Shown piece after piece: positions 50,181-56,825 of a stretch of DNA of 64,000 nucleotides. Origin of the DNA: an uncultured Acidobacteriota bacterium. Its GTDB lineage: Bacteria > Acidobacteriota > Thermoanaerobaculia > Gp7-AA8. Position 1 is the first letter of the stretch, and each line of letters begins with the position of its first letter. Where the stretch lies: the NCBI GenBank assembly GCA_963741955.1, contig CAVUKB010000006.1, positions 32,001 through 96,000 on the forward strand. The letters are read 5' to 3'. The translations under genes and the position numbers were made by a program. The notes beneath the pieces are model-generated. The model was given only the letters and a program-made list of their open reading frames with translations, made no database searches and had not been told where the DNA came from.

Positions 50181-51506
50181 TCAGAAACGGGTGACGATCG
50201 AGACTGATCCGACTTTGTAACGGTCGGACGTTTCGTATGCCGCATCCACCTGGAACCGCGGCCAGGCGAGACCGAAACCGACCGAGTAATGATTCTCGTC
50301 CTGTCCGCCCGGGAAGATGATCGCCGCCGCGACCTGCTCGGCACTCTGGAGAGGTCCGGAGTACTTCATCTGGTGCGCAGGGTCACGCCACCAGCCGGCA
50401 CGAACCGCGAACGGGATCTTCGTCGCGAAGAAGTACTCTCCCCCCACGTGCACCTCGGTGGCATCGTCCATCTTGAAGTCCTTACCTTGAAGCTGCGGAT
50501 CGGGATTGATGACCACCATGTCGTCGACCAGGTTCGAATACATCACGTCGTCGACGTCGACGTTGATGGTCAGCACCGGGATGGGCCGGTACGAGATTCC
50601 GACTCCGGCGATGTCGGGAACATGGAACATCGGATTCGCGAAATGCTGGAATCCGTTGCTCGTGGTGAGGTCCGCGAACGAGAGGTCCGTCTTGAAGGAC
50701 GGCCCCTGCTTGTAGACTCCGCCCAGGCTGAACCGGTCGCTCGGCGCCCATTTGAATCCGCCGGTGAACGTGGTGTCGTGCTCATCCTTCGCCTGCTGCG
50801 CGATGATCGAGAGGAGATTTCCGTTCGGATCGGCGCGGAGAGTGAGCGCGGTCTCGTTGAATTTCTGGTAGCGACCCGCGACGCCGAGGGAGAGATTCCC
50901 CATCTTCCACGCCAGGGCCACACCAGCAGTTTTCATGCTGACGTCGACCACACTGCCGAATGGATTGAGGTTGTACTCCAGACAGTCGGCTCCGAGGTTC
51001 GCGCACTGGTCCGAGCTGACCGGACCGTTCGGTCCGAGATAGAACGTCACCGGATTCAGATCCGTGAACGCCGACGACGCGGTCTCCAGGAGGATCTGGT
51101 AATCGAGCGGCTGATGGTAGTAGCCGGCCACGGCGAAGTTCCCCATCGGCAGGACGATCGACGCGAACGAGAGCTGCGCCCGACGGCTGTAGTTGTTGAA
51201 GTCTTCGGTGGTCAGCGCGTCGGGATAAACACCGCCGGTGGTGAACGTCTGGACGTTCTCGTAGTTCCGTCCTTCGACCGAGATCTCCGGACGCCGGAGG
51301 ATGGTGAGACCGGCGGGATTCGCTTCCGCCGCTGACGCGTCGTCGGCCAGCCCGAGGAATGCACCTCCCATTGCGAGTGAACGCGCGCCCGGATTCGCGA
51401 AGTTGAACTGAACTCCGGAGAGAGCCTCCATGTCCGTGTTCTGCGCGAGGGCCGCCGTTGCGGCGAGCAGAAGAAGTGTCGAGACGAGTACCAGGACTCT
51501 ACGCAT
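50181..51506 (-). CDS. OmpP1/FadL/TodX-family outer-membrane protein
   Basis: Signal peptide; PGARSLAMGGAF...ADDASA..ANPAGL; beta-strand pattern; C-terminal Phe. Confidence 0.85.
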   Translation of the reverse strand: MRRVLVLVSTLLLLAATAALAQNTDMEALSGVQFNFANPGARSLAMGGAFLGLADDASAAEANPAGLTILRRPEISVEGRNYENVQTFTTGGVYPDALTTEDFNNYSRRAQLSFASIVLPMGNFAVAGYYHQPLDYQILLETASSAFTDLNPVTFYLGPNGPVSSDQCANLGADCLEYNLNPFGSVVDVSMKTAGVALAWKMGNLSLGVAGRYQKFNETALTLRADPNGNLLSIIAQQAKDEHDTTFTGGFKWAPSDRFSLGGVYKQGPSFKTDLSFADLTTSNGFQHFANPMFHVPDIAGVGISYRPIPVLTINVDVDDVMYSNLVDDMVVINPDPQLQGKDFKMDDATEVHVGGEYFFATKIPFAVRAGWWRDPAHQMKYSGPLQSAEQVAAAIIFPGGQDENHYSVGFGLAWPRFQVDAAYETSDRYKVGSVSIVTRF

Positions 51507-51576
51507 ACCCATGCCTCCCATCGACTCCGTCCGGAGTCGCGATTCGTTGTTCTGCGTTGTCGATTCGGACCCGCCA

Positions 51577-51605
51577 AGTCTAGATTTGAGCCGTGCGGCA
51601 GTCAA
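51577..51605 (-). promoter_or_regulatory. Sigma70 promoter of the FadL-like gene
   Basis: TTGACT-17 nt-TAGACT on the minus strand. Confidence 0.7.
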
Positions 51606-51621
51606 GACGAGGAAAGGCAAT

Positions 51622-52021
51622 TGAAAGGCATCGAGGATCGAGGATCGAGGATCGAGGATCGAGGATCGAGGATCGAGGATCGAGGATCGAGGATCGAGGA
51701 TCGAGGATCGAGGATCTGGGATCGAGGATCGAGGATCGAGGATCTGGGATCGAGGATCGAGGATCGAGGATCTGGGATCGAGGATCGAGGATCGAGGATC
51801 GAGGATCGAGGATCGAGGATCGAGGATCGAGGATCGAGGATCGAGGATCGAGGATCGAGGATCGAGGATCGAGGATCGAGGATCGAGGATCGAGGATCGA
51901 GGATCGAGGATCGAGGATCGAGGATCGAGGATCGAGGATCGAGGATCGAGGATCGAGGATCGAGGATCTGGGATCTGGGATCTGGGATCTGGGATCTGAA
52001 AAGCATCACGGATCGTGGATC
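51622..52021 (+). repeat. Heptamer tandem array 1: TGAAAGGCATC-(GAGGATC)52
   Basis: 52 contiguous 7-mers at 51633-51996, with TGGGATC at units 13, 17, 21 and 49-52; then a second head TGAAAAGCATC and degenerate units. Confidence 0.97.
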
Positions 52022-52033
52022 GGGGACCCGATA

Positions 52034-52069
52034 GGGGGGTCCGGGGTCCGGGGTCCGGGGTCCGGGGCC
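52034..52069 (+). repeat. (GGGGTCC)4 heptamer run with G-quadruplex potential
   Basis: GGGGGGTCC GGGGTCC GGGGTCC GGGGTCC GGGGCC: five G tracts of 4 or more. Confidence 0.8.
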
Positions 52070-52139
52070 GAAGCTCACAGTTGTGATCAGGCTGCGATCC
52101 GCAGTCTCGTCCGGAATCTCTCGGACCGTCTCAACTGCC

Positions 52140-52386
52140 GATGCCGTTCAGATCCTCGATCATGGATCCTCGATGTCTCTCAGATCCTCGATCCTCGATC
52201 CTCGATGTCTTTCAGATCCTCGATCCTCGATGTCTTTCAGATCCTCGATCCTCGATGCCTTTCAGATCCTCGATCCTCGATGCCTTTCAGATCCTCGATC
52301 CTCGATGTCTTTCAGATCCTCGATCCTCGATCCTAGATCCTAGATGTCTTTCAGATCCTCGATCCTCGATCCCAGATGCCTTTCTA
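52140..52386 (-). repeat. Heptamer array 2: about 25-bp units TGAAAGRCATC-(GAGGATC)2-4 on the minus strand
   Basis: Plus strand shows repeated GATGYCTTTCA-GATCCTC-GATCCTC; the array begins at the proS stop codon. Confidence 0.95.
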
Positions 52387-54102
52387 GCCGCCGAGGCGTT
52401 GGGATTCGACCAGTTCGATGATTGCCTTGACCACCGCCCCCGGCTCGCCGACCTGCTTCTCGCGATCGCGGCGGAGGCTCCATTCGATGTTCCCCTCCGC
52501 GAGGCTCCGGGCTCCGATCACGATGCGGACAGGAAAACCGATCAGGTCCGCATCTGTCAGTTTGACCCCCGCGCGCTCGTCGCGATCGTCGTAGATCACT
52601 TCGATCCCGGAGGCGAGCAGTTGTGCATAGACCTGCTCAGCAGCGCGGGCCACCGATTCGTCCTTTCCGAGAGTGGTGATCACCACTTCGAACGGAGCGA
52701 TCGGGATCGGCCAGATGATTCCCTTTTCATCGAAATTCTGTTCGATTGCCGCGGCCACGGTCCGGCCGATGCCGAGCCCGTAGCAGCCCATGATCATCGA
52801 GCGCCGCTCGCCGCTCTCGTCGAGATAGACGCAGTTCATCGCATCGGAGTACTTCGTCCCGAGCTTGAAGATGTGGCCCACTTCGATTCCGCGATACGTC
52901 TCGAGAGGCGTGCCGCAGTGCGCGCAGGGATCTCCCGCGGTGACGAGAGTGAAGTCGTCGAACTCGGAGATGTCGACGTCGCGCCCACGCTCGACGTTGC
53001 GGAGATGCTGATCCCGCCGGTTGGCGCCGACGACCCATTGGTGCATCGGCTCGAGCGAGCGATCGGCGATGACCCGGGTGATCTTCGTTCCGACCGGCCC
53101 GCAGAAGCCGGCCGGTCCGCCGACGACGTCCTCGAAATGCTCGTCGGGAACGAAGGAGAGCTCCTGGACGTCGAGGAAGTTCCGGATCTTCACCTCGTTC
53201 GCTTCCCGGTCTCCGCGGACGAGGACCATCACCGGTCCCTTCTCGGTCTGGTAGACCAGCGTCTTGACCAGCTTCGAAGTGGGGATGTCGAGAAACTTCG
53301 ACACGTCGTCGATCGACTTGGTGTCCGGTGTGTCGATGAATTCCATCGGGGTCGAAGAGCCCTTCTCCGGCTCGGTCGAGTAGAACCCGGAGACGGCCTT
53401 CTCCACATTCGCGCCGTAGCCACATGTGGCGCAGCGGACGACCGCGTCCTCACCCGACTGGGCGAGAACCATGAACTCGTGGGAGTGGGATCCGCCGATC
53501 GCTCCGGTGTCGGCTTCCACCATCACGTGATCGAGTCCGCAGCGGCGGAAGATCGCGTTGTAGGCGTCGCGCATCGCGTCGTAGGTTTCGGCGAGCGACT
53601 CCCAGCTGGTGTGAAAGGAGTACGCGTCTTTCATGATGAATTCGCGCCCGCGCATCAAACCGAAACGCGGACGGACTTCGTCACGGAATTTGGTCTGGAT
53701 CTGATAGAGAGTCGTCGGCAGCTGACGATAGGAGGAGATGGCGTCGCGCACCGTCTCCGTGATCACCTCTTCGTGGGTCGGTCCGAAGACGAAATCACGA
53801 TCGTGCCGGTCCTTGATCCGGAGGAGCTCACGCCCGTACTGGTACCAGCGCTTCGATTCCATCCAGAGCTCGGCCGGCTGTACCGCCGGCATCAGGAGCT
53901 CGACCGCGCCCGCCCGGTTCATCTCCGTACGGACGATCTGTTCGAGCTTCTGGATCGAGCGAAGCCCCAGAGGAAGATACGTATAAATCCCTGCGGCGAC
54001 CTTCCGGATCATTCCGGCGCGGGCCATCAGCTTCTGGCTGACCACGTCGGCGTCCGCAGGCTCCTCGCGGAGGGTGTTGATGAAATATCGATTCCAGCGC
54101 AT
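52384..54102 (-). CDS. proS: Proline-tRNA ligase (with editing insertion)
   Basis: GPTHEE, QTKFRDE.RPRFG.MRGREF.MKDAYSF, GIEVGHIFKLG, MGCYGLG. Confidence 0.99.
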   Translation of the reverse strand: MRWNRYFINTLREEPADADVVSQKLMARAGMIRKVAAGIYTYLPLGLRSIQKLEQIVRTEMNRAGAVELLMPAVQPAELWMESKRWYQYGRELLRIKDRHDRDFVFGPTHEEVITETVRDAISSYRQLPTTLYQIQTKFRDEVRPRFGLMRGREFIMKDAYSFHTSWESLAETYDAMRDAYNAIFRRCGLDHVMVEADTGAIGGSHSHEFMVLAQSGEDAVVRCATCGYGANVEKAVSGFYSTEPEKGSSTPMEFIDTPDTKSIDDVSKFLDIPTSKLVKTLVYQTEKGPVMVLVRGDREANEVKIRNFLDVQELSFVPDEHFEDVVGGPAGFCGPVGTKITRVIADRSLEPMHQWVVGANRRDQHLRNVERGRDVDISEFDDFTLVTAGDPCAHCGTPLETYRGIEVGHIFKLGTKYSDAMNCVYLDESGERRSMIMGCYGLGIGRTVAAAIEQNFDEKGIIWPIPIAPFEVVITTLGKDESVARAAEQVYAQLLASGIEVIYDDRDERAGVKLTDADLIGFPVRIVIGARSLAEGNIEWSLRRDREKQVGEPGAVVKAIIELVESQRLGG

Positions 54103-54222
54103 GGCTTGCTACCCGGTAAGGACGGATTTCCCGCCGCGGTCGCGGCGGAAGCGCCGCATTCTAACAGTTTCCCGTCTTCCCGGCGGGAACGGGCGGTTTC
54201 AATTCCGGAAAGGAGTGTTCTG

Positions 54223-54717
54223 GTGATCGAAGGGGGGCTCGAAGAGAAGACGCTGGTGTTCGACCGCACGCCGATCGGGCGGCTGGTCTCCTGCGCCGCT
54301 GCCTTCGGAGCCGCCGCCCTCTTCTTCCAGTACCTCGGCGCGGGCCTGGAGAACGTCGAGCCACTCCCTCTGGCAGGGCTCGGGTTCCTTCTGATCGGGA
54401 CGATCCTCGCGGCACTTCTTCAGTACGGGGACCACATCTACATCGGTCCGGAAGGGCTCCTCTACGAGAATCGATGGGTGCGGCTGGTCGGGCGCCGCGC
54501 CGCGTGGATCCGCTGGGAAGAGGTGGTGGAGATCCGCGAGATCCGTCGCAAGATCCTGGTGCTTTTCTCGCGCGACGGCCGCCGCGTCTTCGTCGATGCC
54601 ATCAACGGCTATCGCTTCGCCCGGGCCGAGATCCTCCGGCGGGCACCGCACGCCGCAATCACCGGAACGCTGGAGCGCCGCGACCGGGAAGAAATGCATC
54701 GTGGATCGAGGATCTGA
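54223..54717 (+). CDS. Small two-TM membrane protein with a PH-like C-terminal domain
   Basis: AGGAG RBS and GTG start; two TMs; IGPEGL...IRWEEV; last codons and stop lie inside array 3. Confidence 0.7.
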   Translation: MIEGGLEEKTLVFDRTPIGRLVSCAAAFGAAALFFQYLGAGLENVEPLPLAGLGFLLIGTILAALLQYGDHIYIGPEGLLYENRWVRLVGRRAAWIRWEEVVEIREIRRKILVLFSRDGRRVFVDAINGYRFARAEILRRAPHAAITGTLERRDREEMHRGSRI

Positions 54718-54906
54718 AAGGCATCGAGGATCGAGGATCGTGGATCGCGGATCTGAAAGGCATCGCGGATCTGAAAAGCATCGCGGATCGCGGATCGTGG
54801 ATCGAGGATCTGAAAGGCATCGAGGATCGCGGATCGAGGATCTGAAAGGCATCGCGGATCGCGGATCGCGGATCTGAGAGGCATCGTGGATCGTCGATCG
54901 GAGATC
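54691..54906 (+). repeat. Heptamer array 3
   Basis: Repeated TGAAAGGCATC heads followed by GAGGATC/GCGGATC/GTGGATC units. Confidence 0.95.
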
Positions 54907-55010
54907 CGACAGAGGTCGAAGAGAGTGATGCGAATATTCGGGACCGGTGCGCTGCTCACGACCATTCCATCCCCTGAACCGATATCATGCGCACGACGGA
55001 GGAGAGAGCA

Positions 55011-55457
55011 ATGCCGACGCTGACTGAACGGATCCGTACCGATCTGACCTCTTCCATGAAGGCCCGCGATGCCGCGCGCACGTCGACTCTGCGGATGGTG
55101 CAGGCGGCTCTGAAGAACGAGCAGATCGACAAAGGCCACGAGCTCACGGACGAGGAAGCGACTGCAGTGGTCGCACGTGCAGTCAAGCAGCGTCAGGACT
55201 CGATCGAGCAGTACCGGAAGGGAGGTCGCGAGGATCTCGCCGCGAGGGAGGAAGCGGAGATCGCGATGCTGCAGGATTATCTCCCGCAGCAGCTCTCCGA
55301 GACCGAGGTGGAAGCGATCGTGGATCAGACGATCGCCAGCACCGGGGCCACCTCGAAGAAGGACACCGGCAAAGTGATGAAGGAGATCATGGCGTCTCAT
55401 CGCGGCACGGTCGACGGAAGAATGGTGCAGGAGATTCTCGCGAAGAAGCTGACGTAG
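55011..55457 (+). CDS. yqeY: GatB/YqeY domain protein
   Basis: MKARD...LR, KQR.DSIEQY..GGR.DLA..E, YLPQQL, GKVM. Confidence 0.95.
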   Translation: MPTLTERIRTDLTSSMKARDAARTSTLRMVQAALKNEQIDKGHELTDEEATAVVARAVKQRQDSIEQYRKGGREDLAAREEAEIAMLQDYLPQQLSETEVEAIVDQTIASTGATSKKDTGKVMKEIMASHRGTVDGRMVQEILAKKLT

Positions 55458-55542
55458 CTGACAGCCCCTCCCCATCGCGACCGGGACAAAGCTCGGACCC
55501 AGGATGACCCAGGAGTCTGAGCGCACACCACGCCACTCGCGC

Positions 55543-55563
55543 CGGACTGCAAGTCCGCACTCC
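55543..55563 (-). repeat. REP-like palindrome of the same family as 29615
   Basis: CGGACTGCAAGTCCGCACTCC is the reverse complement of GGAGTGCGGACTTGCAGTCCG. Confidence 0.65.
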
Positions 55564-55592
55564 TCCGGGTTCAGTCCCGATCCCCGACTGTC

Positions 55593-55732
55593 GATGCCTT
55601 TCAGATCCTCGATCCTCGATTCTCGATCCTCGATTCTCGATCCTCGATCCTCGATCCTCGATCCTCGATCCTCGATGCCTTTCAGATCCTCGATCCTCGA
55701 TCCTCGATCCTCGATGCTTCTCAGATGCCTCA
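55593..55732 (-). repeat. Heptamer array 4
   Basis: Plus strand GATGCCTTTCA-(GATCCTC)n; ends next to the TGCTATTCT -10 element of pyrE. Confidence 0.95.
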
Positions 55733-55752
55733 TGCTATTCTCCGTCGCCGGA

Positions 55753-56334
55753 ATGAATGACAGCTTCGATCTCGCCGCACTCCTCGAGTCCACCGGGGCC
55801 CTTCTCACCGGGCATTTCCGGCTCTCATCCGGGCTGCACAGTCCGAATTACGTCCAGTGCGCGAAGCTGCTCGAGCATCCCCGCAACGCCGCGGCGATCG
55901 GCCGCGCACTCGCCGCGATGATCGCACCGCTGAAGCCGGAGAAGATCGTCGCTCCCGCGATGGGAGGAGTGGTGATCGGGTACGCCGTTGCGGAAGCACT
56001 CGATCTTCCGATGATCTTCACCGAACGGAAGGACGGCGTCATGTCGCTCCGGCGGGGCTTTTCGGTCACCGGGGGAGAGCGGCTCGTGGTGGTCGAGGAT
56101 GTCGTCACCACCGGAAAATCGACTCGGGAGACCGTAGAGGTCGTCGAGTCGCTCGGTGGTGAGGTCATCGGTTTTGCATCCATCCTCAACCGGAGCGGGC
56201 GCGAGAATCCGTTCGACCGTCCTTACGTTACTCTGATGGCGCTCGGTCTCGAGACGCACCCGCCGGATGCATGTCCTCACTGCCGGCGCGGTGAGGCGCT
56301 CGATGCTCCGGGGAGCCGTTTCACGAATCGATGA
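55753..56334 (+). CDS. pyrE: Orotate phosphoribosyltransferase
   Basis: GHFRLSSGLHS..Y.QCA, PAMGG, VVEDVVTTG.S, PGSR. Confidence 0.95.
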   Translation: MNDSFDLAALLESTGALLTGHFRLSSGLHSPNYVQCAKLLEHPRNAAAIGRALAAMIAPLKPEKIVAPAMGGVVIGYAVAEALDLPMIFTERKDGVMSLRRGFSVTGGERLVVVEDVVTTGKSTRETVEVVESLGGEVIGFASILNRSGRENPFDRPYVTLMALGLETHPPDACPHCRRGEALDAPGSRFTNR

Positions 56335-56825
56335 GCCAGCGAATCGCAACAGTCGGAACCGAAGAGATCGCCGTCGAGCTCCGGAAGGAGAATGGAACGG
56401 CGTACGTTCGCGCCGGCGAATCAGAGCTCGAGATCGATGTCCTCTCGATCGGGATGGACGAGGCGATGCTCAGCATCGACGGGAGACGCGTCCGGGTTCC
56501 CTTCATCCGGGAAGGAGGACGGGTCGAGCTGATGCTCGACGGGGAGGTCTGGTCCGTCGACATCGCTGCGCCGGGCCGGGGACGCCAGAGACATCGCGAA
56601 CATTCGATGTCCGCACCGATGCCGGGGATGGCCTTGAAGATCCTCGTCGCTCCCGGTGACGCGGTGAAGAAGGGAGCGCCCCTGATGATTCTCGAAGCGA
56701 TGAAGATGGAGCACCCGATCACCGCTCCCTACGACGGAACGGTCAAGGCGATCCACTGTCGGGAGGGTGAACTGGTGCAGCCGGGCGCCGACCTGATCGA
56801 GATCGAGGCGGCGGAGGAATCGTGA
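56331..56825 (+). CDS. Biotin carboxyl carrier protein (BT and biotinyl domains)
   Basis: APMPG, LEAMKMEH biotinylation motif. Confidence 0.92.
   Translation: MSQRIATVGTEEIAVELRKENGTAYVRAGESELEIDVLSIGMDEAMLSIDGRRVRVPFIREGGRVELMLDGEVWSVDIAAPGRGRQRHREHSMSAPMPGMALKILVAPGDAVKKGAPLMILEAMKMEHPITAPYDGTVKAIHCREGELVQPGADLIEIEAAEES

Follow-up and report, generated by a model that had tools for sequence, protein, structure and literature searches.

Why should four tandem arrays of a single heptamer, all carrying the same 11-nucleotide sequence, stand at gene boundaries between positions 51622 and 55732 of the window examined here, a 64,000-nucleotide stretch of acidobacterial DNA? The window corresponds to C6:32001-96000 (contig C6) of a 5.44-Mb genome with 63% GC, assembled in 16 contigs and 99% complete. 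All four arrays were recovered from the sequence itself, by Tandem Repeats Finder (TRF) and by a tokenizer, and their orientations alternate as + − + −, as the original prediction for this DNA had stated. The arrays belong to a dispersed, polar family of heptamer repeats arranged as hairpin arms, which is of a known kind, in a punctuated higher-order form that is new. It is probable, although far from assured, that they are expanded arms of hairpin-type elements that are built of heptamer repeats and produce long stems in RNA, an acidobacterial counterpart of the G-rich intergenic heptamers of Xanthomonas and Nostoc.

The tokenizer describes each array with two symbols, as follows: H, the 11-mer with at most two mismatches, and U, any heptamer of the form NNGGATC. 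The head H is TGAAAGGCATC together with close variants, and the units are mostly GAGGATC. Array 1 (51622-52021, + strand) reads H U52 H U2, with units that are mostly GAGGATC, a periodic TGGGATC and a variant second head; TRF assigns it a period of 7 with 48.4 copies and 96% matches. Array 2 (52140-52385, − strand) reads H U3 H U4 H U2 H U2 H U2 H U2 H U3 H U3 H, and its nine heads delimit 25-nt and 32-nt higher-order repeats (TRF period 25, 5.7 copies, 98%). Array 3 (54690-54892, + strand) reads H U2 H U4 H U H U4 H U3 H U3 H U, where seven heads are each followed by one to four units of the GCG, GTG and GAG variants. Array 4 (55593-55723, − strand) has three heads and 14 units in the order H U4 H U10 H. 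Arrays 2 to 4 are higher-order repeats, in which a head with 1 to 5 units gives the TRF periods of 25, 32, and 39. The first 51 kb had been described as free of such arrays, and indeed no other member of the family is present anywhere in the window.

Beyond the window, tokenizing the whole genome for NNGGATC units and the TGAAAGRCATC head revealed 101 arrays on nine contigs (the H/U arrays), which together hold 1158 units and 213 heads in 10.7 kb, with 3 to 54 units per array. The unit variants GAGGATC, GTGGATC, and GCGGATC all keep the GGATC core, with GATC recurring at 7-nt intervals. Across the genome, 77 exact copies of the 11-mer were counted, compared with approximately 3 expected in 2 x 5.4 Mb by an arithmetic estimate, and four in-register GGATC heptamers occur 184 + 177 times (361 in all), compared with 3 + 0 for a reversed control. 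The family stands among many others. TRF retrieved 1400 non-overlapping arrays from the whole genome, with period 7 the commonest (239), followed by period 14 (149) and period 21 (81), and the period-7 arrays comprise many heptamer families, such as AGCCTCG (34), AGAGGCG (24), and AGGATCG (18). Most period-7 arrays (197/239) are less than 20% coding according to a home-made gene caller, which supplies the distance and coding statistics throughout, over-extends starts and missed a gene of 164 amino acids in the window. Arrays of differing heptamer families frequently adjoin each other in this genome, and a short array of another family, (GGGGTCC) x 4.6 (52036-52067, + strand), lies within the 118-nt loop that separates array 1 from array 2.

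The 11-mer is present in 75 of the 101 arrays; 34 arrays open with it, 26 close with it, and 11 do both. The spacing between two heads ranges from 1 to 52 units, most commonly 4 (48/128), followed by 3 (27), 1 (20), and 2 (19), and arrays with the TRF periods of 25, 32, 39, 46, and 53 that follow from 11 + 7n belong nearly all to this family. The original prediction had described each array as a head followed by units; the shared 11-mer stands, but it also occurs inside the arrays and at their far ends. The 11-mer is a punctuation mark, not merely a head. What is new relative to published heptamer repeats is the higher-order unit with its punctuation, and no description of an 11-nt punctuation element for heptamer repeats was found in the literature searched, as far as its accessible text extends. 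The shared head also marks the common descent of approximately 100 arrays. With the same 11-mer punctuating 75 of 101 arrays, the claim that separate loci did not arise by independent slippage is upheld.

The same regularities had been taken to suggest templated addition, where an RT (reverse transcriptase) or telomerase-like enzyme would extend DNA ends at gene boundaries by copying a short RNA that contains head and unit, beginning anew at the head. The shared head, the restart-like grammar of a head and n units, and the strict polarity described below all agree with this proposal, as does the placement of IVP proteins, encoded between heptamer arms elsewhere in this genome, in PF05635, which we take to be the Pfam family of Avd, the accessory protein of diversity-generating retroelements. 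However, this 99%-complete genome contains a single RVT_1 match, of the group II intron type. In that gene, at C11:449-3372 (L253), the RT and maturase domains are separated by a DDE transposase gene. The only RT is therefore a split group II intron gene, which leaves templated addition without support. Telomerase-like and DRT/retron-like systems that make templated repeats have an intact RT gene and a unit-bearing template RNA, neither of which was seen here; 71 of the 77 exact heads lie within arrays, and no stand-alone template copy was seen, the other 6 heads not having been examined. Enzymes of the HUH type also fail to accompany the arrays, given that no Y1/HUH transposase gene, including the 11 Y1_Tnp matches in the genome, lies within 10 kb of any H/U array. 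The variable number of units between heads and the locus-specific unit variants fit local slippage better than a single template. Templated addition is very improbable.

The placement of the arrays at gene edges, running away from the gene, was supported genome-wide. In 76 of 101 arrays (binomial p = 4e-7), the G-rich strand has its 5′ end closer to a gene than its 3′ end, with median distances of 31 nt at the 5′ end and 208 nt at the 3′ end. The same polarity is found in 25 of the 33 arrays with stop codons on both flanks, where over-extended start calls cannot matter. Approximately 10 arrays overlap a stop codon, which in most of them is a TGA contained in the first head. Convergent gaps are enriched, with 33 of 101 arrays compared with 633 of 3837 gaps overall, and divergent gaps are depleted (14/101). 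Within co-directional gaps the G-rich strand is sense in 25 arrays and antisense in 29, which argues against a simple tie to the direction of transcription. Neighboring arrays of opposite orientation are also ordered: the G-array precedes the C-array in 14 cases and follows it in 1. Among 80 (GAGGATC)4 loci fetched from metagenomes, opposite neighbors are G-then-C in 20 and the reverse in 0, and most form tight hairpins. Among 23 pairs from the genome's other heptamer families, the left arm is richer in G than in C in 17, balanced in 2 and richer in C in 4.

Tandem heptamers of several families in the intergenic DNA of a single genome, as observed here, are also a feature of the cyanobacterial STRRs, which were reportedly described by Mazel and colleagues in 1990; we know of no head or punctuation in these repeats.

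A closer relationship is seen to the G-rich heptamers of Xanthomonas (GGGAATC) and of Nostoc/Anabaena (GGGGA(C/T)T). The accessible portion of Rehm et al. 2015 (PMC4692102) describes these as approximately 90% intergenic, with 70 to 75 convergent inverted pairs, a 5′ open reading frame (ORF) at 28 nt compared with a 3′ ORF at 160 nt, few copies where the neighboring genes diverge, blocks of four units favored, and a function that is not known. Since rules of polarity and pairing are published there, a gene-anchored grammar is a known property of such repeats. The present family resembles them in its dispersed 7-nt units, intergenic bias, 5′ end near an ORF, convergent pairs and four-unit blocks. 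In contrast, it has GG instead of GGG, with no runs of three or more G and no strong G-quadruplex, it carries the 11-nt punctuation that creates higher-order repeats of 25, 32, 39, and 46 nt, it extends to 52 units, and it belongs to the phylum Acidobacteriota. The part of the same paper available to us reports no preference for the leading or lagging strand (PMC4692102), whereas the array strand is weakly associated here with local GC skew (odds ratio 2.8, p = 0.016).

Several of these features could also be explained by an element that acts as DNA, with the arrays either binding a nucleoid, insulator or IVP protein or forming a G-quadruplex or cruciform that affects replication or promoters. 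The 7-nt period, the GGATC core with a GATC every 7 nt, the favored four-unit blocks, which recall the G-quadruplex-forming Xanthomonas repeats as presented in the accessible text (PMC4692102), and the weak link to GC skew are all compatible with it. However, the presence of GG instead of GGG makes a stable G-quadruplex unlikely, and every cassette with an IVP gene (described below) has its own heptamer, so that one binding protein cannot explain all families. A role at the DNA level is unlikely.

The TAACTGA direct repeats reported from the intergenic DNA of Beggiatoaceae, Cyanobacteria, and Bacteroidetes (MacGregor 2015; PMC4679880, as far as its text was accessible) are likewise heptamers beside gene boundaries, with a patchy distribution across phyla and a mechanism of spread that is not known. 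They differ from the present arrays in having mostly 2 to 6 copies, in the sense orientation and just upstream of start codons. Only one indirect repeat is described among 170 sets, and a translational role is proposed (PMC4679880).

The inverted arrangement also shows in predicted RNA structure. Arrays 1 and 2 constitute a gene-less pair in the gap between proS and the fadL-like gene, and arrays 3 and 4 flank yqeY; in predicted folds, both pairs supply inverted arms that are able to form a long stem. As RNA, the − strand of 51600-52400 is predicted to form one giant hairpin of −447 kcal/mol, compared with −335 ± 10 kcal/mol for shuffled sequences (z = −11.5), and array 1 is the C-rich 3′ arm when read in the direction of a proS-to-fadL transcript. 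For arrays 3 and 4, the predicted gain from pairing is −141 kcal/mol, compared with −19 ± 5 kcal/mol when array 4 is shuffled. These strong predicted hairpins fit the earlier suggestion of an RNA-level insulating or stability element. A search of Rfam over 51000-56400 retrieved no match at E ≤ 0.1. The genes for Rho and RNase III are present in the genome.

Stems at gene ends raise the question of whether the arms, with the head complement downstream, are Rho-independent bidirectional terminators selected at these positions. Such a role would agree with the enrichment in convergent gaps, the depletion in divergent gaps and the median distance of 31 nt between array start and gene, and 5 to 7 consecutive T follow the C-arm in a genome of the same order (G026). 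On the other hand, an intrinsic terminator has a stem-loop followed directly by a U-run, while the head complement gives only three T, and a terminator scan revealed no terminator-like site at the arrays. Runs of AAAA are no commoner outside (9/93) than inside (7/93) metagenome arms. Moreover, such arms bracket IVP genes between co-oriented, operon-like genes, where a strong terminator would be harmful. A function in termination is unlikely. A general A- or U-tract at the outer ends was also considered and is unsupported, with AAA in 2 of 38 outer flanks of IVP cassette arms.

Among public sequencing runs, the stretch is contained in one DNA run, from a soil metagenome that is possibly the source sample, and in no RNA run. 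Contig support in that run was examined for 52080-56200. The contigs confirm the unique-to-array junctions over 52348-54727, over 54825-55651 and from 55688 onward. All of them end inside arrays and none crosses any array, so that the array copy numbers are unverified.

The genes around the four arrays show how closely the arrays adjoin coding sequence. A gene for a FadL/TodX-type outer-membrane transporter (50181..51513, − strand) likely starts at the ATG at 51513, where a signal peptide is encoded, although the longest ORF extends to 51620. Array 1 was correctly placed 16 nt from a sigma-70-like match on this side (TTGACT-17-TAGACT at 51605..51577, − strand); the site is weak, a consensus match only, with 9 of 12 positions, and one such site was found where 0.6 would be expected. 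The proS gene for prolyl-tRNA synthetase (52384..54102, − strand; domains tRNA-synt_2b, tRNA_edit, and HGTP_anticodon) encodes a protein with 71% identity to that of a metagenome-assembled genome of Thermoanaerobaculia, the nearest named relative. Array 2 begins at its stop codon, as predicted: the outer head starts at the TAG, and the rest of the head, AAAGGCATC, directly follows it. The conserved 164-aa gene (54223..54717, + strand) has no Pfam family but is real, with 57% identity to the orthologue of a relative (L007). Homology extends only as far as residue 154; array 3 contributes the 10 final codons together with the TGA, in agreement with the original prediction; the C terminus has been rewritten by the array. 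The yqeY-family gene (54987..55457, + strand) lies between arrays 3 and 4, and the outer end of array 4 is 30 nt ahead of the ATG at 55753 of a pyrE-like phosphoribosyltransferase gene (55753..56334, + strand). A −10 box of pyrE had been placed against array 4, but a simple promoter scan found no site between the two. An open frame of 858 codons at 52141-54717 (+ strand), antisense to proS, was rejected as a high-GC artifact. The arrays are also not a coding repeat, with no Pfam match for the ORFs that run through them and periods that are not multiples of 3.

Relatives present the same gene junctions without arrays, which bears out the expectation of empty sites. The gap between proS and the fadL-like gene is approximately 75 nt and array-free in L007, compared with 870 nt here. 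The distance from the 164-aa gene to yqeY is 46 nt in one relative (G005), and that from yqeY to pyrE is approximately 10 to 20 nt in two (G005 and G001), so that gaps at the positions of arrays 3 and 4 measure 10 to 46 nt. Four in-register GGATC heptamers are absent from all 24 same-family genomes searched, which represent other genera; this tally, like that of PF05635 below, takes in the unpublished genomes G022 and G030. The array family has been gained in this lineage. A search for a head with two units gave 0 matches in the collections genome_contigs and metagenome_contigs, both of which may exclude the records of this genome itself. Similar repeats with other letters are found farther away. 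Two relatives at a greater distance, G026 and G036, have four in-register GGATC heptamers with other units, and more than 122 metagenome contigs contain plain (GAGGATC)4. G026 has its own A-rich head before (AGGGATC)n arrays (24 matches compared with 0 in a control), and these heads adjoin stop codons. A G-arm followed by a punctuated C-arm stands downstream of its yqeY (L255, G026 C11:218900-220700, positions 505-758), where the C-arm has a period of 54 made of approximately four units and a T-rich spacer. The architecture is that of the window, written in different letters.

This distribution might be that of a neutral satellite, a selfish or junk repeat that spreads by recombination and slippage, has no function and shows in its polarity what selection tolerates near genes. 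In its favor are an extreme expansion that varies widely among arrays (3 to 54 units), the locus-specific variants, the arms without co-variation, the lack of GGATC heptamer arrays in the 24 same-family genomes and of matches to a head with units in the two large collections. However, the G-first order holds in unrelated metagenome contigs (20 versus 0), a related head is retained in a genome of the same order, and the same distance rules apply in three other organisms, according to the accessible part of PMC4692102. Together, these three observations argue for a constraint beyond mere tolerance, and a neutral satellite is improbable.

The orientation of yqeY varies among relatives. It points the same way as pyrE in the window and in 3 of 13 relatives (L243, L244, and L250), and is divergent from it in 10 of 13 (within L240-L252), indicating that a single-gene inversion has occurred in this neighborhood. 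The inverted arrays around yqeY could in principle mediate such a flip.

A possible source of paired arms is found in genes of the IVP family (PF05635; Avd-like four-helix bundles), which are present in 36 of 41 searched genomes of the class. When 30 IVP loci were fetched, taking the best match per genome, 20 were bracketed by matched inverted heptamer arrays, 5 partly and 5 not, with the locus from the unpublished genome G022 (L116) scoring none. Each of the 20 bracketed loci has its own heptamer, and the arms average approximately 4.3 units. By hand count, G minus C per unit of the left arm is at least +2 in 9 of these and −2 or lower in 0. One IVP gene of this genome, at C6:534851-535345, has arms of the H/U family. 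Judging from translations, it sits between a tyrosine-kinase-like and a PHP-type-phosphatase-like gene, and a head supplies the TGA of the former. No publication linking heptamer repeats with IVP genes was found in the literature searched, to the extent that its text was accessible. Another IVP gene, at C4:5264-5578, appears to lie within a longer coding region with short heptamer-like inverted arms on either side, and could be an insertion within a gene.

A known counterpart of such a cassette is the intervening sequence (IVS) in the 23S rRNA of Coxiella burnetii, which contains an S23p/IVP ORF and has a 28-bp terminal stem that is cut by RNase III (PMC4990558, from its accessible portion). 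In both systems inverted arms surround a loop, 28 bp is approximately the length of four heptamers, and the IVP family occurs between heptamer arms in this genome. Unlike the Coxiella IVS, the pairs of the window stand between protein genes, not in rRNA, and have arms of many times that length; no ORF lies in the loop of pair 1/2, and that of pair 3/4 encloses a host gene.

Resemblance to REP/BIME and REPIN clusters extends to the dispersed, intergenic and hairpin-forming nature of the arrays and to their clustering and mixing with other modules, whereas the units here are non-palindromic tandem 7-mers, not the 20-40-nt palindromes of REP/BIME with RAYT. A separate REP-like double-hairpin module, with 45 core matches in the genome, builds its own tandem clusters (for example at C1:122811-123501 and C1:431794-432045). 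It lies within 100 nt of 18 of the 101 H/U arrays, often at the inner end, and occupies the loops between arrays at C5:648193-648425 and C6:487264-487575.

If the arrays are arms of hairpin-type elements, sites such as those in the window may have been seeded by an element of the IVP-cassette type through a copy mechanism. Slippage and unequal crossing-over would then have enlarged each arm locally into higher-order repeats, in which a head with approximately four units would correspond to roughly one 28-bp arm. By analogy with rRNA intervening sequences, the arms in a transcript would pair into long stems that RNase III could cut, and the cut stems may mark transcript boundaries. A C-rich arm that is engaged in pairing immediately after its synthesis would offer no loading site for Rho, which may be why the G-first order is retained.

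Several observations weigh against this account. The G-first order is not absolute, as shown by the four C-first pairs among the 23 of other families, and many H/U arrays are single, without a partner arm. Head counts usually differ between the two arms of a pair; with mostly unequal head numbers, a nested-insertion model for the higher-order repeats was rejected. Unit variants are shared no more between paired arms (cosine 0.56) than between unpaired arrays (0.61), so that selection for perfect pairing is not evident, and co-evolution of the arms was not seen in this comparison. The loops of the window lack a PF05635 ORF, and gene-less loops in general have no IVP remnant and frequently contain a different hairpin repeat. 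At the arrays, no target-site duplication or target motif was seen. The distance and coding statistics carry the faults of the gene caller described above, and transcription, stem formation and cleavage of the arrays are all things that we infer.

A wider reading, which we offer tentatively as a possibility, takes all these parts jointly. A head with approximately four heptamers would be a conserved functional module, namely, one arm of an IVS-like RNA element that is mobile and inserts at gene boundaries, with an outward-facing stop in the head. The G-first order would avoid Rho, RNase III would excise the element, and the IVP protein would copy or maintain it. The STRRs and the Xanthomonas/Nostoc repeats would be the expanded or orphaned arms of IVP cassettes.

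For annotation, the consequences are immediate: such arrays rewrite the C termini of genes, break short-read assemblies and create long false ORFs. The family also provides a rich and clean case, with approximately 100 arrays of one family, a marker of descent, empty sites, an arm order shared with unrelated soil contigs and one copy that encloses an IVP gene. It makes specific claims testable, namely, the relation of arm order to Rho-dependent polarity, the cutting of stems by RNase III and the binding of the IVP protein. To our knowledge, the heptamer tandem repeats of bacteria have remained for more than 30 years without an accepted origin or function. If the wider reading is true, the origin of these satellites in bacteria would be explained, as arms of IVP cassettes.

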